From: Eledone cirrhosa
Lineage: Eukaryota
Assembly: GCA_964016885.1 (NCBI GenBank)
Contig: OZ024747.1
Location: 80,476,001-80,540,000, forward strand
DNA: 64,000 nt
Direction of reading: 5' to 3'
Position numbers and translations under genes: made by a program. Position 1 is the first letter of the stretch. Each line of letters begins with the position of its first letter. Shown one piece after another: positions 5,934-62,191 of the stretch. The notes below the pieces were generated by a model. It saw only the letters and a program-made list of their open reading frames with translations, was not told the DNA's origin and made no database searches.

Positions 5934-6240
5934 TTATATTGTTTGTTGATTATCATTCAACAAAGTTAATTTTATAACAATTTTGAAGCACTCTACAGGA
6001 TTTATCTGGAGTATTATTAATATTAACAATATTAATAAATGGAAAATATCTTTATAATACCGCCGTTAGCGAGCTTATACTATTAAGTCTTTGCTAAGGT
6101 ATATCAATATCTTAACACCAAATATTATATTTTATCTGATGAAAGCACACTAAAACTTTGTGTCCTTGAAATACGTATAATAAAATAAATATGCTATTAT
6201 AAAGATATTTTCCATTTATTAATATTGTTAATATTAATAT
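5931..6240. mobile_element. (TA)n-inserted pLTR-like element related to family A, with type I hammerhead
   Basis: Inverted arms about 6015-6059 / 6195-6240 and a tail; hammerhead at 6129-6186. Confidence 0.8.
6129..6186 (+). ncRNA. Type I hammerhead ribozyme
   Basis: ATTTTAT-CTGATGA-AAGCACAC..GTGTCCTT-GAAA-TACGTA-TA-ATAAAAT: stem I, core, stem II, palindromic stem III. Confidence 0.75.
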
Positions 6241-10302: not shown

Positions 10303-10527
10303 CTCTGGCAACTTAAACGTGATGATGTTGGGTATTCGATGTTTTGGAATATTGTCTCAAGAGGGATTCCTTTTAATTCCTCATCTGAGACATGTGATCT
10401 CTGTGTGGAGGAGATATTCTTTATATTAAAATCCAAAAATTCCCTTAATCTAAGGAACAATTTATTCAGTTGCTGCAGACATAGATTGAACTCAACGTTT
10501 AAATATAAATATAAATTTAAAATGTAG
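10303..10527 (+). pseudogene. C-terminal GIY-YIG endonuclease fragment of a Penelope-like element (Naiad-like)
   Basis: LWQLK...WNIVSRGIPFNSSSETCDLCVEEIFFI...LNLRNNLFSCCRHR matches the W.I...CxLCxxE...LNxRxE...CRH C-terminal pattern. Confidence 0.75.
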
Positions 10528-12172: not shown

Positions 12173-12238
12173 TATTTTATCTGACGAAGGCATGCCATAA
12201 TTTTAATATGGTATCCCTGAAATATGTATAATGAAATA
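12173..12238 (+). ncRNA. Type I hammerhead in family A pLTR
   Basis: TATTTTAT-CTGACGA-AGGCATGCCATA..TATGGTATCCCT-GAAA-TATGTA-TA-ATGAAATA. Confidence 0.7.
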
Positions 12239-12297: not shown

Positions 12298-15058
12298 TAA
12301 TGAAAAATTGAACGGGAACAAAAAAGAGAGGCAGTACAAACAAATGTTTATTAATTTCACGCTCTTGAGAGTGGGGTGGTGGTGGGGAACGACGTTTCGG
12401 GCATAAGCCCTTCTTCAGGTGAAAAGTGTGTGGGAAGAGAGTTCAAAGGGTGTGTAGGGGAGTGGTGGAGAGACATATAGCAAAAAGGCGGTGAGAGGAA
12501 ACGGTGCAAATGAAATTAAAAATAAAGGCATGATCAAGATAAAATTAAAATGGGGTAAAACAGGTGGTGGAAGGGTGTGGGGCATGTAGGGGTGGTGGCG
12601 GGTGGAGTGGGGAGAGGGAGACGGGGTGTCCGAGCGGGGAGGGCTGAAGGTGGTGTGTGTGTGTGTAGGTGTACGTGTGTGTGTGTGTGTATGTGAAAGC
12701 AAGTGTTGGGGGAAGAACGGGGTTGCATGTTCAGGAAGAGGTGTGTGTGGGGTGGGGTGTAGGTCGGAGTGTGTGTGCGTGTGTGGATAGAGGGGTGGGG
12801 GGAGAGGATTCCGGAGGCTGAATGTGTAAATATGTGGTGGTACGCACGTGTGTGTGTGGTGTTTATGCGTGTTGTTGGTGTAGGTGGCGTGTGGGAAATG
12901 TTTTTCTTTTGGGGTGTGTGTGTGTGTGAGTCATAAAGGTAATTCCGTAAAAAGATGTGGTGGAATGCTTAGTAAAATCCTTGGATGTGGTGGATTCCGG
13001 GATCAAGGTTCACATACGTGTAATCCGTGAAGAGATGGTCGGAAGAGGGGAGATGTGGGGTGCGCGCGCAACAGGAAGTGGTCAGAGGGTCAAGGCAGGA
13101 GGAGTGTTGTGTGTCTGTGTGTGCGGGGAGGTGGTCAGAGGGCATAGCAGCAGTAAGGTAGAATGGTAAGTGAAGGTGTGTCAGTGTGTGCGGTGGACAG
13201 GGGAGAGGATGGGTAGGTGTGAAAGTTAGAGTGTGGAGGGGGTGTGTGTGTATTAGTAGAGGTGTTAGTGGGATGAGTGAGTGTTTGAGAAAGGGTGTGG
13301 GTGGAGCGGGGAGAGAAGGGTGTGAGGGTCGATGGAGGGAGTGTAGTGTACTGGTGTGTGTGTTTGGTGAAGGGGGTGTTAGTGGGTGTTAGTATACAGG
13401 AGGTGGAGAAAGAGTTGAATGCGGGTGTGAGTGGGGGTCAGTGGTGGTAGGGAGTGTAGAGTGGGTGGTGTAAGAGGGTGTGTGTGTACGTGTGATTAAG
13501 GTTGGGGGGTGTTAGTGATGTTAGTTGAGTGTAGGGTGGGTGGTGTAAGTGGGTGTGTGTGTTCGTGTGCTTGGGGTCAGGGGGTGTTAGTGATGTTAGT
13601 TGCGGGGTGGTGGGGTGAATGTGTGGGGGTGAGGGTTAGTAGTGGTAGTAGGGTGTGTGTTTAGTGTATATATGTGCCGGTGGGTGTGTGCGTGTGATAA
13701 GGAGGGGGGAGGAGAAGTAGGGAGGGATGTTAGTATGTTAGTTGTGGAAAGGTGGTCAGATGTGGGGTGGAGGTGTTAGTATTGTTAGTTGTGGGGTGGG
13801 CGGTGAAAAGGAGGGGTGTGTTAGTGGTGTTAGTGGGGGATATGTGTGGGGGGAGGGGGCGGTCGAAGGCTAAAGGAATAAGGGTGGGGAGTTCAGGCCG
13901 GGGGGAGTGTGGGTCTGTAAGATGAAGATGGTTCGTTGTTCAACTCTTAGGAGATTGGCGGGTGTTCCGTGGCATTGGAGTAGGCCACAGACTGTGAGAT
14001 GGCGTGCGGAATGTCCAGGGGCACCAAAGTGGTGGGCGATGGGGGAACTACCACCGAGACGAATATCCCGGAGGTGCTCAGTAAATCTGTCCGCCAGGCG
14101 ACGTCCAGTCTGTCCGACGTTAGTCGCGCTGCTCTCCGCGCAGCGAAGTCCGTAGACTAGGTTGGAGGAGGTGCAGCGGAAGGCACGCCGGACAGCGAGA
14201 GAGTGGCCGTTGGGACCCTGGAAGGTGGTGGTGTTGGTGATGTGGGGACAGATGTTGCAGCGGGGCCTAGAACAGGGAAAGGAACGGGGGGGAGCGTGGG
14301 TTGGGGGGTAGGGAGCTGTGTACGAGGAAGGTGCGGAGATTGCGTGCGCGTTTGAAGGAGGGGAGTGGTGGGGCTGGGAAGATGTGGGAGGTGGAGGGGT
14401 CGGACTGGAGGCGTCGGAAGAGGCGGAGGATGGTGCGGTGGATGGGGTATGGTGGAGGGGTGGTAGGTGATGGGGAAGGGGAGAATGTGGGTGGGTGTGC
14501 GGTGGCGTGGGGTGAGGGTGGTGGAGCGGTGGACAGCACGGGCGCGGGTGAGAGCGGTGTGGACGAGAGGGGGGGGGGGACCTCTGCGGATGAAATGGCT
14601 GACTAGCGAAAGGGCCTGGGACTCAAAGTCGGCATCTCGGCTACAGAGGCGGCGGACCCTGAGGAGTTGAGAGTAGGGAATAGAGTGTTTAGTGTGTGTG
14701 GGGTGGGAAGAGGTGAAGTCGAGGTAAGAGTGGGAGTCGGTGGGTTTGAAGAAGGCGGAGGTGACGAGGGAGTGGTGGGAGAGGTCGAAGGCGACGGAGA
14801 TGTCTAAGAAGTGGACGTGGGTGGTGGAGATAGAGGTGGTGAAGTGGAGGGAGGGGTGGAAGGAGCAGAAGAAGGAGAGAAAGGAGTCGAGCTGTTCTCG
14901 GTTGAGGGTCGTGGCTCCGATACAGTCGTCGATGTAACGACCGTACAGTTCGGGTGTGGGGCCGGTGTACTGGGCAAAGATTTGGGCCTCAACATGGCCA
15001 ACAAAAAGGTTGGCATAGTTTGGGCCCATTCTTGTACCCATGGCTACCCCCGTGACCT
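12298..15058 (-). mobile_element. 5'-truncated Penelope-like retroelement (RT C-terminus, GIY-YIG, long 3' UTR, pLTR)
   Basis: GVAMGTRMGPNYANLF..YGRYIDD..FLDI..KPTDSHSYLDFTSSHP..SIPYSQLLRVRRLCS, then NLVY..NVGQTGRRLADRFTEH..PGLN (about 13870-15058, frameshifted); (TA)n at both ends. Confidence 0.92.
12389..12424 (-). ncRNA. Minimal Penelope-type hammerhead
   Basis: Minus strand CTGAAGA-a-GGGC ttat GCCC-GAAA-cg-TC. Confidence 0.7.
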
Positions 15059-24491: not shown

Positions 24492-24549
<58 letters not shown>

Positions 24550-24552
24550 ATG

Positions 24553-24603
<51 letters not shown>

Positions 24604-24672
24604 TATGAAGAGAGAAGAAACATTTAGATATAATTAGTAATAAAATGTATCATACCTAAGCTGTTCCTAAAT

Positions 24673-24760
24673 TCCTCGACTACGTAGTTTCGTGGCATAA
24701 ACAAAAACAATATATCAAAGATATAGAGTCCCTGCGAGGTCTGCCGACTTATCAAGAGGA
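24673..24760 (-). ncRNA. Type I hammerhead, U3-A8 variant (unit 1)
   Basis: Minus strand TCCTC-TTGATAA-GTcGGCA...TGCCAC-GAAA-CTACGTAG-TC-GAGGA. Confidence 0.85.
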
Positions 24761-25263
24761 TACCTCATTTTACTAGTCTCAAGAACGCGTCTACACGACG
24801 TGAGAAAGAATCCCAAAAGGCGGAGGGGGAGATAGTCACGCGATATAATGGTCGAGAAACAGAGCTAAGCCTCTTATAACCACGAAGAAAATACCACGGA
24901 GGTGGAGGGGGTATTCATATCGAGGCCGTAGAAGAGGTAGTGAAGAAGGCGAGAAGTATGAGTAATGGAAGCTTTCCAGTTGTCCCCACACTTCAAAGAT
25001 TGCTCGACCAGAGGGAGTTATTAATATATTAAGAAACACACAGATACATGCGGACACACACATATATACATGAATGCATCCGCACCCAACTGTGAGTTAA
25101 GGGTGCCAACTTCACCGATGTTGCTCAATGAATGACTGGGACAGACCAATTCAGTTTGAACCAGACTGAACCAGTATCAGAGTTAAAAATACATTATGAA
25201 GAGAGAAGAAACATTTAGATATAATTAGTAATAAAATGTATCATACCTAAACTGTTCCTAAAT

Positions 25264-25351
25264 TCCTCGACTACGTAGTTTCGTGGCATAAACAAAAACA
25301 ATATATCAAAGATATAGAGTCCCTGCGAGGTCTGCCGACTTATCAAGAGGA
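25264..25351 (-). ncRNA. Type I hammerhead, U3-A8 variant (unit 2)
   Basis: Same sequence as 24673-24760, offset 591. Confidence 0.85.
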
Positions 25352-25854
25352 TACCTCATTTTACTAGTCTCAAGAACGCGTCTACACGACGTGAGAAAGA
25401 ATCCCAAAAGGCGGAGGGGGAGATAGTCACGCGATATAATGGTCGAGAAACAGAGCTAAGCCTCTTATAACCACGAAGAAAATACCACGGAGGTGGAGGG
25501 GGTATTCATATCGAGGCCGTAGAAGAGGTAGTGAAGAAGGCGAGAAGTATGAGTAATGGAAGCTTTCCAGTTGTCCCCACACTTCAAAGATTGCTCGACC
25601 AGAGGGAGTTATTAATATATTAAGAAACACACAGATACATGCGGACACACACATATATACATGAATGCATCCGCACCCAACTGTGAGTTAAGGGTGCCAA
25701 CTTCACCGATGTTGCTCAATGAATGACTGGGACAGACCAATTCAGTTTGAACCAGACTGAACCAGTATCAGAGTTAAAAATACATTATGAAGAGAGAAGA
25801 AACATTTAGATATAATTAGTAATAAAATGTATCATACCTAAACTGTTCCTAAAT

Positions 25855-25942
25855 TCCTCGACTACGTAGTTTCGTGGCATAAACAAAAACAATATATCAA
25901 AGATATAGAGTCCCTGCGAGGTCTGCCGACTTATCAAGAGGA
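25855..25942 (-). ncRNA. Type I hammerhead, U3-A8 variant (unit 3)
   Basis: Same sequence, offset 1182. Confidence 0.85.
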
Positions 25943-26445
25943 TACCTCATTTTACTAGTCTCAAGAACGCGTCTACACGACGTGAGAAAGAATCCCAAAA
26001 GGCGGAGGGGGAGATAGTCACGCGATATAATGGTCGAGAAACAGAGCTAAGCCTCTTATAACCACGAAGAAAATACCACGGAGGTGGAGGGGGTATTCAT
26101 ATCGAGGCCGTAGAAGAGGTAGTGAAGAAGGCGAGAAGTATGAGTAATGGAAGCTTTCCAGTTGTCCCCACACTTCAAAGATTGCTCGACCAGAGGGAGT
26201 TATTAATATATTAAGAAACACACAGATACATGCGGACACACACATATATACATGAATGCATCCGCACCCAACTGTGAGTTAAGGGTGCCAACTTCACCGA
26301 TGTTGCTCAATGAATGACTGGGACAGACCAATTCAGTTTGAACCAGACTGAACCAGTATCAGAGTTAAAAATACATTATGAAGAGAGAAGAAACATTTAG
26401 ATATAATTAGTAATAAAATGTATCATACCTAAACTGTTCCTAAAT

Positions 26446-26533
26446 TCCTCGACTACGTAGTTTCGTGGCATAAACAAAAACAATATATCAAAGATATAGA
26501 GTCCCTGCGAGGTCTGCCGACTTATCAAGAGGA
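26446..26533 (-). ncRNA. Type I hammerhead, U3-A8 variant (partial unit 4)
   Basis: Same sequence, offset 1773. Confidence 0.85.
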
Positions 26534-26805
26534 TACCTCATTTTACTAGTCTCAAGAACGCGTCTACACGACGTGAGAAAGAATCCCAAAATTATATCTA
26601 AATGTTTCTTCTCTCTTCATAATGTATTTTTAACTCTGATACTGGTTCAGTCTGGTTCAAACTGAATTGGTCTGTCCCAGTCATTCATTGAGCAACATCG
26701 GTGAAGTTGGCACCCTTAACTCACAGTTGGGTGCGGATGCATTCATGTATATATGTGTGTGTCCGCATGTATCTGTGTGTTTCTTAATATATATATATAT
26801 ATATA

Positions 26806-26988
26806 TTCCGGGTTGAATCGGAGGTAGCCACAGTAAGTAAGGTACTCAATACATAGCAGAGTATAACAGTTTTAATATAGATGAGATTCTACAGGACTAG
26901 AACTGATTCATTCTTTAGAAATGATCAGGATTCCTGATGATTTCTAAAGAATGAAACAGTTCTAGTCCTGTAGAATCTCATCTATATA
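26806..26988. mobile_element. Family D inverted-arm element with hammerhead-like core
   Basis: Palindrome about 26875-26986 centred just 5' of CTGATGA-tttctaaagaat-GAAA; homologous to 38445, 53915 and the tail-only copy at 19065-19112. Confidence 0.8.
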
Positions 26989-33811: not shown

Positions 33812-34566
33812 ATGTTCGTTGAACCAGCGTTAGGCGTTCGTTGAACCAGCGATAGACGTTCGTTGAGCCAGCGATAGACGTTTGTTGAGCCAGCGATAGC
33901 CGTTCATTGAGCCAGCGGTAGACGTTCGTTGAGCCAGCGGTAGACGTTCGTTGAACCAGCGACAGACGTTCGTTGAGCCAGCGATAGATATTCGTTAAGC
34001 CAGCGATAGACGTTCGTTGAGACAGCGATAGACGTTTGTTGAGCCAGCGATAGACGTTTGTTGAACCAGCGATAGACGTTCGTTGAACCAGCGATAGGCG
34101 TTCGTTGAGCCAGTGGTACGTTCGGTGAGCCAGCGATAGACGTTCGTTGAGCCAGTGGTACGTTCGTTGAGCCAGCGGTAGACATTCGTTGAGCCAGCGG
34201 TAGACGTTCGTGGAACCATCGACAGACGTTCGTTGAGCCAGCGATAGACATTCGTTGAGCCAGCGATAGGTGTTCGTTGAGCCAGACGATAGTTGTTCGT
34301 TGAGCCAGCGATAGACGTTCGTTGAGCCAGCGATAGACGTTTGTTGAACCAGCAATAGTCGTTCGTTGAACAGGCGATAGGCGTTCGTTGAGCCAGTGGT
34401 ACGTTCGGTGAGCCAGCGATAGCCGTTCGTTGAGCCAGCGATAGACGTTCCTTGAGCCAGCGGAAGGCGTTCGTTGAGCAAGCGGCAGACGTTCGTTGAA
34501 CCAGCGATAGACGTTCGTTGAACCAGCGACAGACATTCGTTGAGCCACCGATAGACGTTCGTTGAC
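33812..34566. repeat. 22-bp minisatellite (GAGCCAGCGATAGACGTTCGTT), about 34 units
   Basis: Direct tandem periodicity with occasional shorter variant units. Confidence 0.95.
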
Positions 34567-38050: not shown

Positions 38051-38444
38051 TGTTTGTTTTCAATTAATGGCCGTCATTTTCCTCTAAACATAGACGCCAC
38101 ATTTGTCAGCAAACCGTTAAATCTAAACATAAAACAATGCACACAAACTTATATTTTAATATTTTATTATGTCAACAATATTGTTTTCTCTATCAGCTTT
38201 CCTTATTTGATATTATTCAGTTTGCACGCACAGGCGATAATATATCATATATGATCGGCGCTTCTACGTTATATATGCGCCTAACTAAGAAAGATAATCA
38301 GTGTAAAACGAGACTGGAAGTTACTGAGAACAATAGTCAGATCTCATCGAAAATGGAGCATGGTCAATGCAATAATTATATATATATATATATTAGTATC
38401 GGAGCTCTGAAATAGCGATGTATGTATGAATGTATGTATAGTAT

Positions 38445-38609
38445 ATCCCGGGTTCAATCGGGGGTAACCACAGTAAGTAAGGTACTCAATAGAAAGCAGA
38501 GTATAAATATTTAATATAGAAAGACTTCTACAGGACTGGAACTGTTTCATTCCGGAGAAATCATCAGGAGAAATCATCAATGAAACAGTTCTAGTCCTGT
38601 AGAAGACTT

Positions 38610-38617
<8 letters not shown>
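38445..38617. mobile_element. Family D inverted-arm element
   Basis: Homologous to 26806-26988; inversion junction within the hammerhead-like core. Confidence 0.8.
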
Positions 38618-38648
<31 letters not shown>

Positions 38649-46776: not shown

Positions 46777-49300
46777 TTCTTCTGGTTTTATAATTTCACA
46801 AAGTTTTACCAATAGAGAGAGAGTCGGTTTCTAACATAGACACAAGACTCTCTCATTGGAATTTACACAACATCAACTAGGTAGATATGTATGTATGCAT
46901 GCATGTGTAGATATGGATGTTATTGTATGTGTGGATGTGTATGTTTTGAGTTGTATGTGTGCATGTGTATATGCTTTGTATCTGTACATGTGTATATGCA
47001 GTTATTAGATGCAACATTTTTGGAATGTTTTACATATTTTTACTGTTCCATTAATGGATTGTACTTGTAATTTCCTAACTAGTTGTGTTCTTTCTGTTCC
47101 TGTGAAGCCTAGCTTCTTAAGATTTGTATTGAGGCAGTTACTAACTTACCCCAGTGCCCAAATAATCACAGGCATAAATCTGAAGGTGTAATCAGGGTGG
47201 AGTATCTGCAGATTTCTCATCAGTTCTGCATAAATATTCTCCTTTTCACTAATCTTTCAATATTATATTGGCATCTGCTGGGCAGCTAATTTCCACTACT
47301 GTGCATGTTTTCTTCTCCCTGTCCCATATCATAATATCTGGTCTGTTATGCCTGCATTTTATTGGGGTTTTTACTGGAACATTCCACCAGTACTCTTTCA
47401 TATTATGTACATGGATGTCTTCCACATTGTTGTAGCTTTTAATGTGTTTATTATCGGGGCTATCGTTTTTACGAACTGCACTGTACAGTGTTTTGGCCAC
47501 TACATCTGGCCTCATATGTAGATAGTACCGCGATGACATCTTTGGGCAGTTGCTGATGATATGGGTGATATCCTCGATGTTAATTCTGCAGAGTCTGCAC
47601 TTGTTATCACATCTTGGTGTTATGCCTGCATCCCTATCTCTTTTGTGAATCAGGTATTTCGTGCTAATCTCCTGTTCTTGGATTGCAAAAGCGTATCCTT
47701 CAAAGTGTGAGCCAATATAGCGGTTGTTGGTCCAAGGTAGACTACTTTCCTTATCTATATTACTCTCACTCTGGAGCTTCCTGGCAATATATCCATGCAT
47801 GATTTTTTGCTGATAGGCATGCAGCTTTTCATCCATGGATTCACTGCGTACTGCTGAGCGACATCCCTGGGTGTGAGTTTTTGATTATCACACAGGGAAT
47901 ATCTGTCAAGGAGTTCCTTCCCAACTCATGCAGATAGACTTGCTCGAGAAGCGGGTTCCTACGCTTCGAGGTTCGTAGATGTTGTCGGAGAGATATGATG
48001 CAACATTCAAATGTTGTCTGGACTGATGTTAGGCCTCTGCCTCCCTGCTTACGTTTCAAGTAAAGGCGGTCTATGTCACTTTTGATGTGGAAGTTTCCGG
48101 TGTTGTTCAGTATTTTTCGAGTTCCAACATCAACTGCTCGGATTTCGTCTATCGTCCAATTGAGTATTCCAAACATTGGTGTTAGGACAGGCACAGCAAA
48201 CACATTGTGAGCCACTGTTTTGTTTTGCGCAGAGAGTTCTGATGACGAGATCTTTCTTAATCGGGTGTAGTATTCCCTGGTTATGCGTTCTTTATTACAG
48301 ATACCATTATAGGATATGTTCTCATCTATCCCCAGGTATCTGTAGCAGTCCTCATCAGATATCGGTGAAACAGTTAGACCATTGATGACAATGTTGCTAG
48401 ATTGGGTTGTTGTTTTTTCCCGCTTTACAGTCATGTATGAGCATTTATCTTGGCCAAACTCCATTCCTATATCCTTTGAGAACGTTGTAACCAGGTCAAG
48501 ATTTTTCTTTATCCCATCCATGTTCTTGGCATAGAGTTTCAGATCGTCCACAAAGAAGTTATGGGTAAGGTTCGTATTTCTGTCCTCCTGTGAGCCAATG
48601 ATGTATCCCTCACATTTCTTGAGCAGAAAGGACAAGGGGTTTAATGACAAGATGAACAATATCACAGAGAGACTGTCCCCCTGAAATATACCCTTTCAAT
48701 ATTTTATTTTATCAGTGAAAATAGAGTCCTCCCTCTCTGTCTTTAACTTTAGGATAGTAGCCCAAAAAGAAGGCAGCTTCTCTATGGCTCTGACAATAAT
48801 GTCTTGGACTTTAGCAAGTTGGAGGGCCTATATCATCCAAGAGTGGGGAACAGAATCGAAAGCTTTCTTGTAGTCCAGCCAGACTGTAGTCATATTCCTC
48901 CTAAGTTGTCGCACCTCCGACATCGCAGTTTTGTTGATTAGGAGTTGTTCAGCACATCCCCAAACTCCTTTCTTTCCAGCTGCTTGTTCATCTGTGATGA
49001 TGTTATTATTTTCACAGTGATCTTTGAGGAATAGGTTCAGGCAGGCTGTATACATCTTATACATCAGGTTCTGGCATGCAATGGGTCGGTAGTTTTATGC
49101 CAAGTGGGTGTCTTTGTTCTTGGGGACCAGTAACGTTTGTGCTAATGTCAACCATTCTAGTATAAGTGTATCTCCCTTAAGAACTTGTTGGTAGAGGTCA
49201 GTAAGATACCTCCGATAGAATATTAGTTTTTTGTACCAGTAGCCGAAAATCATGTCTCTTCCTGGTGTTTTCTTATCTTGGAGTTTTCACTTATTTCGTA
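46777..49300 (-). mobile_element. 5'-truncated R4/Dong-like non-LTR retrotransposon (RT, CCHC, RLE, 3' UTR) in a (TATG)n tract
   Basis: RPIAC..; WLDYKKAFDSVPH; FQGDSLS; FFVDDLKLY; YRYLG; CRLC..EDITHIISNC; RPDIMIWD..VVEISCP; ORF ends about 47005; frameshifts and stops; (TATG)n at 46672-46776 and 49301-49443. Confidence 0.93.
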
Positions 49301-51529: not shown

Positions 51530-52459
51530 TTATACACGATGAAAAGATTGCAGAGAGAAAAAACGAGCCTTTTATCTAAATACATTATCACTTCAGCCCT
51601 GTCAGTGGAAATAAACACGGAATCTCAAATAGGGAGGATAACACAACCACTCCCCCACCCCATACCCACAGAGTTGCATATATAGGCATTGGTGTGTATC
51701 TAAGGAGGGCGTTCTTCTGCCACGTTGTTTTGGGTTCAGTGAAACCCGTTTCCTTTCTTCTTTACTCAGACTATTGATCTTAGCAAATTGATCCTATCAA
51801 AGTCTCATACAAACAAGGTTATGGATGTATGTTTGGTAGCACAGACCAATTGCAGCATTCATAATGCATAAAGGGCCTTCAAAACGGGTGGGGGGAAATA
51901 GATAAATTATCATAATACGGGTTCCTAGTTTAAATACTTGTAACCTAAATGTACTCCGCAAATGGCACCCAATACCGAGTAGGTAGTGTTACACCGGGTG
52001 CCGAATTACATCAACCGCACAAGAACTCGAATAGACTCTTGTATGAGCTTATCCCACAAGCTAAGTTTATGATAGAAAACACCTAAGTTATTACGCAATT
52101 GGCTTGAACCCAAAATCATGCGATTTGAACCCGAAAGTATGTGATTGCGAAGCAAAATTCCTAACCATTGATCGAAACTTAAATTCAAATTATCAATCAA
52201 TGATTTCTTTGTTTTGTTTTTATTAAGGAGTGTTTAAAATATCTCACTACCCCACACAGTCCTTCACCGCCAATGAATGACACATTACTGTTCATGGACG
52301 GTTCATAGATCTAGGTATCGTACCCTGATTCTCTCCCCCGTTATGTAATGACTTATAGATCTGTTCAACTGTCGCTGATCCTCGCCGTTAAGTAATGAAT
52401 CGTAGACAATATAGATCTGGATATATTATACTGGCTTTAATCGAGCTCAAAGTGATGTT

Positions 52460-52693
52460 AATTGAACTGAGCAGCTTAAAATGACGTTCATTGAACTGAG
52501 CGGTTTATAATGACGTTCATTGAACTGAGCAGCTTAAAGTGACGTTCATTTAATTGAGCGGCTTAAAATGACGTTCATTGAACTGAGCGGCTTAAAGTGA
52601 CTTTCATTGAACTGAGCGGCTTAAAGTGATACTCATTGAACTGAGCGACTTAAAGTGATGCTCATTGAACTGAGAGCTTAAAGTGACGTTCAT
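52460..52693. repeat. 29-bp minisatellite (ATTGAACTGAGCGGCTTAAAGTGACGTTC), about 8 units
   Basis: Direct tandem periodicity. Confidence 0.92.
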
Positions 52694-53914: not shown

Positions 53915-54100
53915 TATAGAAATGGCTTCTACAGGACTAGAACTGTTTCATTCGGGAGAAATCATCAGGGGCTTGCTGATGATTTCTCCCGAATGAAACA
54001 GTTCTAGTCCTGTAGAAGCCATTTCTATATTAAATATTTATACTCTGCTTTGTATTGAGTACTTTACTTACTGTGGTTACCCCCGATTGGACCCGGGATA
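53915..54100 (+). mobile_element. Family D inverted-arm element, hammerhead-like core on both strands
   Basis: ..TTTCATTCGGGAGAAATCATCAG gggcttg CTGATGATTTCTCCCGAATGAAA..; tail to 54100. Confidence 0.85.
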
Positions 54101-54125
54101 AATATATATATATATATATATATAT

Positions 54126-54395
54126 AGACAGGGGGGAAGAAAAAATGGCTTCACTTGTGCTTTCAACAAATTTATTTTCTTCACAAAATCCAAAAAGAAT
54201 TTTTCTTAAAAAAAATTATTTTATAAATTAAGTTGTTGGTTGTAACCAACAACTTAATTTATAAAATAATTTTTTTTAAGAAAAATTCTTTTTGGATTTT
54301 GTGAAGAAAATAAATTTGTTGAAAGCACAAGTGAAGCCATTTTTTCTTCCCCCCTGTCTTAATATACCTAACTGTACCAAGGATTACACACATTT

Positions 54396-54400
<5 letters not shown>
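54126..54400 (+). mobile_element. Near-perfect 234-bp palindrome plus tail in (TA)n
   Basis: Arms 54126-54241 and 54244-54359, 2-nt spacer, tail to about 54400. Confidence 0.85.
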
Positions 54401-57904: not shown

Positions 57905-58466
57905 AAATACGTATTTAAGAAAGCCACAACAATGCAAAGGGAAATCTCGAGGTAGGAAGTGAAATATAGATAGGAAAAACAGGTGAAAGTGAAAGTTGAG
58001 AGAGACAAAGATGAAAACAAAACAAAGGTAGAAGGGTTACCGTAGTAGAGATTTAATCCCAATATTTCGGGCTCACGCCCATCAACGGGGGAAAAGTTCC
58101 AAAAGGGGGGAAAACAGGCCAAGCGGAGAAAGTGGAACCCTAACCCTAACCCTAACCCTAACCCTAACGGCATTCCTGTCTTAACGACATCACCACTTTC
58201 TCCGCTTGGCCTGTTTTCCCCCCCTTTTGGAACTTTTCCCCCGTTGATGGGCGTGAGCCCGAAATATTGGGATTAAATCTCTACTACGGTAACCCTTCTA
58301 CCTTTGTTTTGTTTTCATCTTTGTCTCTCTCAACTTTCACTTTCACCTGTTTTTCCTATCTATATTTCACTTCCTACCTCGAGATTTCCCTTTGCATTGT
58401 TGTGGCTTTCTTAAATACGTATTTTTACACATTTCACAATGCTTCAAGCAAACTTTAACACCCTCT

Positions 58467-59859: not shown

Positions 59860-61140
<1,281 letters not shown>

Positions 61141-61657: not shown

Positions 61658-62117
61658 ATGTTGAAAAGGTAACACACCAGAGAGAGATATACAGTGCGTT
61701 ATCAATAAATCAGGGAAAAAAACCACCAGTGTATGGAATCTATAACCTATGAAAGGCAGACTATAGACACGATAATTAAAAATATAAATTAAAACGTAAA
61801 TAAATACCTCTATAACTATATAACACACGTACAAATCCAAAGACACTCATCTAAAGATATGTTTCACCAATAATTTGTTGAAAGAAATGGGTTAGCCTCG
61901 GTTCATCAGCGTGTGTAAGGCTATACATTTCAGACAACACTAAGAGAATTTTAAAATTGACTGTCCACCTACACGTGGGAGAGAGGAGTCACAGCGTGTT
62001 TAAGGGCAGTGAACCAGTGGCCTCTGAGGGACGAACTGCTAGAAAGGGCAGTCCAAAGCCACTCAGAGAAGTGTGCTCAACCAAACAGAGTTAGGAAAGA
62101 CTGTTATTAGGAGCGAA

Positions 62118-62183
62118 ATATCACGATAAATTAACGGAGGCATAGGCCCTCGCTAGCGAGGGCCTATGCCTCCGTTAATTTAT

Positions 62184-62191
<8 letters not shown>
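62118..62191. repeat. Perfect 74-bp palindrome abutting (TA)n
   Basis: ATATCACGATAAATTAACGGAGGCATAGGCCCTCGCT|AGCGAGGGCCTATGCCTCCGTTAATTTATCGTGATAT. Confidence 0.92.

Follow-up and report, generated by a model that had tools for sequence, protein, structure and literature searches.

A non-coding tandem array of 591-bp units lies between two (TA)n runs in the 64-kb window analysed here (the whole stretch of DNA from Eledone cirrhosa contig OZ024747.1), where it is followed, head to head, by a short inverted copy of its own sequence. The locus raises the question of how an array and an inverted arm came to be joined in this way, and what kind of enzyme could have placed them there.

The array, its inverted arm and the 591-bp unit

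The main tandem array (24598..26591) consists of 3.37 units of 591 bp with a single mismatch (at 24660), and its predicted RNA sense, based on a comparison of folding against shuffled sequences, is the minus strand. Its outer end, termed P1, is the point at which the array meets (TA)n, and corresponds to position 24598 in the main array and 26627 in the arm; the left-hand target run (24496..24600), which is interrupted by TATG units, has 3 nt in common with P1. The initial annotation had described a flip of orientation at a 2-nt AA microhomology, and this was confirmed, with the inversion junction at 26590..26591 being common to forward array and arm. At 203/203 bases the arm (26590-26792) agrees with the reverse complement of 26206-26408, far more than chance would give, and its source sequence ends 181 nt behind the junction. 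As had been reported, the arm passes the end of the main array and continues into the next unit, but its length is 203 rather than 200 nt and the extension is 165 rather than about 160 nt. It comprises a 5'-truncated inverted copy of 38 nt upstream of P1 (26590..26627, plus strand) and, past P1, a tail of 165 nt (26628..26792, plus strand) that is present on the inverted arm only, is predicted to form strong hairpins and ends at a second point, P2. Folding of the whole arm gave a z value of -5.2. The last 6 nt of the arm merge with the right-hand TA run (26787..26806) at P2, leaving an extension of 159 nt when these are discounted, and the same run doubles as the tail-end run of the neighbouring element B1. 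The array is flanked on both sides by TA runs, a microsatellite target which masks any target-site duplication, and the inverted 5'-truncated copy stands directly at its 5' end. Identity between units, and between units and arm, is 99.9-100%, and no further copies of the unit were found elsewhere in the 64-kb window.

A type I hammerhead descriptor, in which any Watson-Crick pair was accepted at core positions 3 and 8, was matched on the minus strand in 4/4 units (24673..24760, 25264..25351, 25855..25942 and, in the partial fourth unit, 26446..26533), in each case with the U3-A8 variant core. In unit 1, the predicted minimal motif has a helix I of 5 bp, the U3-A8 core, G10.1-C11.1, a bulged helix II with a long insert and a helix III made from a self-complementary 10-nt segment, with the predicted GUC cut falling between 24678 and 24677. 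The strict form of the motif, whose criteria were chosen after the motif had been seen, occurred in 0/2000 dinucleotide shuffles and the loose form in 3/2000. All of U3-A8, G10.1-C11.1, a short helix I and a palindromic helix III have been described for hammerheads of Penelope-like elements (PLEs) (PMC4209133), and the same study (Cervera and de la Pena 2014) reported the U3-A8 variant from PLE terminal repeats and proposed circular RNA templates for copying beyond a single unit. At minimum energy the monomer is predicted to pair in helix I and in a portion of helix II, with an incomplete hammerhead core, as would be expected of motifs that are thought to act in dimeric form. When folding was compared with shuffles, only the hammerhead-bearing strand performed better (z -5.3 for the minus strand, z -1.4 for the plus strand). 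Rfam models recognised no ribozyme in the unit, the only matches, to miRNA-like hairpins and a single snoRNA model, lying below threshold, and no tRNA was found in it.

With 7-15 stops per frame in all six frames and a GC content of about 0.40, the unit is non-coding and below 50% GC; 591 is divisible by 3, yet no open frame runs round the circle. An ORF combining RT and GIY-YIG is absent from the unit, which was therefore not classed as an autonomous PLE. Comparison of the unit with the ends of nine neighbouring elements gave no significant similarity in 7/9 cases and weak similarity in the other two (reached by 4 and 6 of 300 shuffles, uncorrected), so that sequence similarity offers nothing convincing by which an autonomous partner might be named. 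On the strength of these models the array is retrozyme-like, with a predicted hammerhead in each unit.

The predicted cut also bears on the form of the template. In a linear monomer with its ends at this cut, P1 would be 80 nt from the 5' end and the arm would correspond to nt 43-245, with no cut site inside; the 'unit junction', which had been singled out as a special point, is only the start site of copying and lies at that same distance from the predicted RNA cut (24677/24678). The circular or multimeric template previously proposed for the structure holds for the main array, which crosses the predicted cut four times and so calls for a circular RNA, a multimer left uncleaved or repeated jumps from template to template. 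It does not hold for the arm, which fits inside a single linear monomer and therefore needs neither circle nor multimer.

Inverted elements surrounding the array

A mechanistic link between the inverted arm and the short palindromic elements nearby had been suggested at the outset, and the neighbourhood bears this out. Besides the array, 17 further inverted elements were measured in the window, and in 15/17 the same one-sided tail was seen: one arm halts at P1, while the other passes P1 and runs to P2 at a TA run. Tails of these neighbours are about 40-88 nt long. The two exceptions are E, which has no tail, and I, for which no tail end was reached within the 400 nt read; neither was given a real tail length. 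It had further been proposed that copies of such elements should share both outer ends whilst their inversion junctions vary, and four families with more than one copy in the window (A, n=2; B, n=3; C, n=5; G, n=2) passed on both counts. Both outer ends recur within a few bases in 12/12 of their elements, with tails of 77/77 nt in A, approximately 68-72 nt in B (including B2, where the TA run has decayed and a tail of about 69 nt was placed by alignment), 84-88 nt in C and 61/61 nt in G (the paired arm of G1 being shortened by an indel). The inner loop, by comparison, ranges from none to 1,901 nt across the 12 elements, and the junction differs each time; A3, B1, G2, I and K are perfect palindromes without a loop. 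Element B1 (26807..26987), which follows the array, is a short palindrome with hammerhead-like arms and a 68-nt one-sided tail, and its relatives lie at 38440-38628 and 53915-54101. Two elements depart in detail, the short arm of A4 beginning about 50 nt upstream of the family A P1 and the tail-less end of B3 joining a CT repeat.

Family C carries canonical PLE hammerheads, and two of its members are not simple palindromes. Element C1 (5931..6239, plus strand) has an 84-nt tail with a 45-nt inverted arm, and its longer, tail-less arm holds the hammerhead (core at 6136). Element C3 (10137..12284, plus strand) begins with an 85-nt tail and an 81-nt inverted arm, followed by the end of a Hydra-type PLE ORF (10303-10527), a spacer of about 1.6 kb and a hammerhead-bearing end (core at 12181) that leads through P1 into (TA)n; its arms are identical at 83/84 positions and it is a young insertion. 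The 74-aa ORF end has 927 relatives at E<=0.001. Four of these were inspected, of which one has RWR, DKT, RT and GIY-YIG-like stretches and two have CxCX5C. RWR, DKT and CxCX5C are marks of the Hydra clade, which targets (TA)n and has hammerheads (PMC8557442). As C3 pairs the tail layout with a Hydra-type PLE ORF end, this layout is therefore PLE-made in this microsatellite-rich animal genome. A second remnant, at 13870-15056 on the minus strand, is GC-rich and frameshifted, and has PLE-type RT and GIY-YIG motifs with a Cys-rich linker; from its motifs we take it to be Neptune-like. Neither the PLE remnants in the window nor their long relatives were recognised by Pfam, and a word-indexed protein search gave no match. 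The window also holds a non-LTR retrotransposon remnant (47249-48695, minus strand; RVT_1, E 5e-10) and two minisatellites, one of 34 copies of 22 bp (33814-34565) and one of 8.6 copies of 29 bp (52445-52693).

The presence of TA-like spots at the element ends, as originally claimed, was supported by counting the bases that each P1 has in common with (TA)n. At least 3 nt are shared in 7/9 families (P ~1e-4, calculated from the base composition of each family and taking whichever of the two phases fitted better), a value which could be weaker because the families may be distantly related. The individual counts are 3 nt in the array, 3 in A, 4-5 in B, 3-5 in C, 4 in each of G, D and I, and 1 in F and K, with E left out. 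For P2 the measurement was confined to the array, where 6 nt are common with (TA)n (chance 0.04). These figures support a role of the spots as putative priming sites. The same 4-nt word also occurs within the first 10 nt after P1 in 4/9 families (array, A, C and G), and around P1 the array agrees with element C4 at 12/13 bases; both were noticed after the fact and may represent a shared start signal.

Within single elements of families A, B and C the two arms are 0.87-1.00 identical, compared with means of 0.76-0.83 between elements, whereas family G has no such excess (0.84 and 0.91 within, 0.89 between). The likeness of arms inside one element fits a single source locus, and the number of RNA molecules is not decided by it.

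Several further features of individual elements were observed. The junctions of B1 and B3 (26925-26935 and 53968-53976) fall at the 5' edge of the hammerhead-like core, which indicates that the junction is not fully random. Element F (57905-58466) is a palindromic insertion with a 42-nt tail and has 5.5 copies of a telomeric hexamer (58136-58168) right at its inversion junction. Element K (54127-54400), situated between TA runs, contains a near-perfect palindrome of 232 bp (230/232) and a one-sided tail of about 40 nt. In H (60370-60629), an inverted pair of 100 bp (99%) has its TA run in the centre, a layout opposite to that of the others. Element I (61740-62191; minus strand, 61909) has a perfect palindrome of 38 bp, and its long arm, with a hammerhead-like core inside, continues for 378 nt or more with no TA end reached.

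Origin of the insertion

Given the tail layout shared with its neighbours, the array is probably a non-coding tandem array of hammerhead-motif units, with arm and one-sided tail, that was inserted by a (TA)n-targeting PLE enzyme priming from both cut ends. The starting point is observed: the insertion sits between two TA runs, its outer ends share bases with (TA)n, and a 2-nt microhomology marks the head-to-head joint between its two pieces. To produce it, the left DNA end would have primed at the internal RNA site P1 and been extended by 1,994 nt, past the predicted cut four times, on what was likely either a circle formed by ligation or a multimer that had escaped cleavage. For the right DNA end, priming would have taken place at another internal site, P2, which lies 165 nt downstream of P1, and extension would have covered 203 nt; both cDNA ends would then have been joined at AA. 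The stretch from P1 to P2 would then represent the PLE 'tail', and the partner enzyme would likely belong to the Hydra or Neptune type, both of which have left remnants in the window. In vitro, a PLE protein has been found to cut and extend both target strands, starting at two internal RNA sites which bound the tail (PMC11167929). Against a PLE reading stand the lengths of the tails, which exceed the published 30-40 bp, the single locus at which the 591-bp family was seen, and the departures within the window, namely E without a tail, I without a TA end, the start of A4, the CT join of B3, the 1 nt of TA in F and K, and the opposite layout of H.

A stricter version of PLE-type insertion, preferred by the initial annotation, has both target ends priming on one continuous RNA, hence on a circle or multimer; this we regard as possible but doubtful. 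The geometry permits it, as a single RNA of 2,402 nt (4.06 units) or more would suffice without reuse, leaving a gap of 205 nt. Private variants are usually common to both arms of an element, and in family G one alignment column, a single site, splits tail from tail-less arms in both copies, as would be expected if two different repeats of one RNA had been used. However, the arm fits a linear monomer (nt 43-245), and no circle is forced by it. The arms of the short palindromes, moreover, copy the same template segment, where twin priming in L1 leaves a pair of inverted fragments and deletes sequence internally. If two RNAs were used instead (dual priming), the product would be the same as from twin priming, and the two routes are inseparable even for L1 (PMC2837659). 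One RNA and two RNAs would leave identical products and cannot be told apart here, and a common RNA for both ends was thus not supported, since two RNAs or, at the array locus, a fold-back would give the same structure.

Such a fold-back would dispense with the second priming event altogether. Following a single priming at P1, the 3' end of the cDNA would loop back 181 nt, anneal AA to TT and copy itself for 203 nt; the first 6-nt TA-like spot would provide the joint with the other TA end, and P2 would then be a joining and not a priming site. As the whole of the arm's sequence, perfectly copied from 26206-26408, lies just behind the junction, this fits the array locus also. It is in keeping with the loop-free perfect palindromes (A3, B1, G2, I and K) and with the greater likeness of arms within than between elements in 3/4 families, and self-priming has been proposed for PLE inversions (PMC3846280). 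It cannot, however, account for C1 or C3: here the longer arm lacks the tail and the tail-bearing arm lacks the body, so that a fold-back could not have produced either arm from the other. Furthermore, tails in families A, B, C and G end at fixed positions, which indicates that the second start is at a defined site, and copying from 26408 would have passed a 7-nt TA-like run in the tail before coming to a stop at P2. Fold-back is consequently held to be unlikely at this locus, and two primings are preferred by parsimony.

A history at the DNA level, in which a monomer was inserted and grew by unequal crossing-over or rolling replication, with the arm added later through a replication template switch between AT-rich spots, is improbable. 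The 2-nt microhomology is also compatible with replication-based switching, and local tandem amplification has been proposed for retrozymes (bioRxiv 2026.07.22.740005). Yet the array stops mid-unit exactly at the inversion junction, the same layout is present in 15/17 neighbours which are not tandem, and the 99.9-100% identity of units and arm gives them one age. An assembly artefact from a fold-back read or collapsed repeat can be set aside as scarcely credible, for although tandem and inverted PLE structures do trouble assemblers (PMC8557442) and the number of units could be wrong, in a fold-back read the mirrored bases would be those immediately preceding the junction, whereas 181 nt are skipped here. 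In addition, the TA run at the end of the arm is followed by another element, which is intact, and the layout matches that of older, diverged neighbours.

Relation to known systems and to public sequencing runs

Insertion by a PLE enzyme from both cut ends would connect two groups of elements. Like the non-LTR retrozymes of animals (PMC7229834; bioRxiv 10.64898/2026.07.22.740005), the array consists of non-coding tandem units with one type I hammerhead per unit and a GC content below 50%, and for retrozymes, as here, it is proposed that a PLE or LINE enzyme makes tandem cDNA from circular RNA. Its unit of 591 bp is larger than the 150-450 bp given for retrozymes, a descriptive range that stands outside the operational definition of the 2026 preprint, and because of this size the array was filed as a retrozyme variant. 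The U3-A8 core, the inverted arm and the one-sided tail also set it apart from retrozymes as described in these sources. In the available text of PMC7229834 the word 'inverted' does not occur, and in that of the 2026 preprint it occurs once and 'tail' not at all; the link from retrozymes to PLEs rests in both papers on shared ribozymes and phylogeny. Apart from the larger unit, the array, with a predicted self-cleavage and a putative RNA circle, appears to answer to the operational description of an animal non-LTR retrozyme.

The second likeness is to PLE insertions with an inverted pLTR and a tail, as described for the Hydra and Neptune clades (PMC3846280; PMC8557442), which share with the array a partial tandem, an inverted 5'-truncated copy at the 5' end, a tail at one end, a (TA)n target and a hammerhead near the 3' end. 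Targeting of (TA)n is reported for the Hydra, Neptune and Naiad clades (PMC8557442). Unlike these insertions, the array has no ORF, its tail is 165 nt long (about 40-88 nt in its neighbours) as against 30-40 nt, and no sequence link from its unit to an autonomous family was found. The anole PLE Poseidon PAc studied in vitro (PMC11167929) resembles the proposed mechanism in its internal starts at two sites bounding the tail, in cutting and extending both strands and in a template that is not cleaved at the hammerhead. PAc starts without homology to the target, whereas here 3-6 nt are common to the starts and (TA)n in most families. Chlamys MRC1 (PMC8557442) is likewise a non-autonomous PLE partner with multicopy head-to-tail insertions, but belongs to green algae; most Chlamys elements lack canonical hammerheads, and their targets are (CA)n or (C)n. 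L1 twin or dual priming (PMC2837659) has in common with the proposal that both target ends prime and that a head-to-head inversion with a microhomology joint results. It differs from the array, in which there is no poly(A), both starts are internal at fixed family-specific sites and the second start lies downstream of the first in the unit, and from the short palindromes, in which both arms derive from one segment and thus overlap on the template.

A retrozyme-like array combined with the arm-plus-tail signature of PLEs was not found in searches of published papers or of the text of the two retrozyme papers. What is new is therefore modest and consists of this combination, tails longer than 30-40 nt, and the microhomology at start sites. 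Each ingredient is known, and their occurrence in a single young insertion provides a small, testable RNA substrate. How PLEs form tandem and inverted insertions is stated to be open (PMC8557442, PMC11167929), and to this the window adds a TA-microhomology rule for the start site and 12 elements, from four families, in which the outer ends are fixed while the junctions vary; two of the 12 (C1 and C3) exclude simple fold-back.

The unit was also sought in public sequencing runs. A word search of 24 listed runs detected unit words in 20 and at least half of the words in 10, the latter under 7 organism labels from 6 studies; no RNA run was listed among those with the unit, which has no bearing on its expression. 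A bolder proposal, which we put forward as a speculation and rate as rather unlikely, is that a 591-nt circular hammerhead RNA is reverse-transcribed in rolling-circle fashion from both PLE-cut (TA)n ends at fixed TA-like spots, and moves between species as an RNA circle. Were this true, the circle would be larger than the animal retrozymes described, and the near-identical unit under at least 7 organism labels would amount to interspecies movement; the locus would furthermore prove directly, by its structure, that retrozymes are mobilised by PLE enzymes, and would offer a minimal substrate on which to work out how inverted PLE ends are formed. A 20-nt pattern of the unit gave 0 viral matches and three metagenome matches, which were confined to the 20 nt and were rejected as chance.

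Reads or contigs containing the unit were compared in four of the 24 runs (X1, X8, X22 and X23). The Hi-C runs X22 and X23, which at about 1.9 Gb each do not amount to a test, yielded 0 reads and 3 partial reads, respectively, the latter probably from one molecule. Run X1 contained one contig of 621 nt, equal to 591+30 and self-closing, and X8 also wraps at period 591, although a tandem array collapses in the same way. The contigs of both runs carry neither flanks nor strand-change joints, the loose ends in X8 being microsatellite matches. As judged from these assembled reads, the two runs show tandem or circular forms of the unit in other samples, and close relatives, horizontal spread or shared material are candidate causes of such similar units under several organism labels. 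Although the runs bear different organism labels, their units are 99.5% identical to that of the window and differ from it at the same 3/591 positions; one of these changes turns a G-U into an A-U pair and two fall on unpaired bases, so that all three fit the predicted fold.
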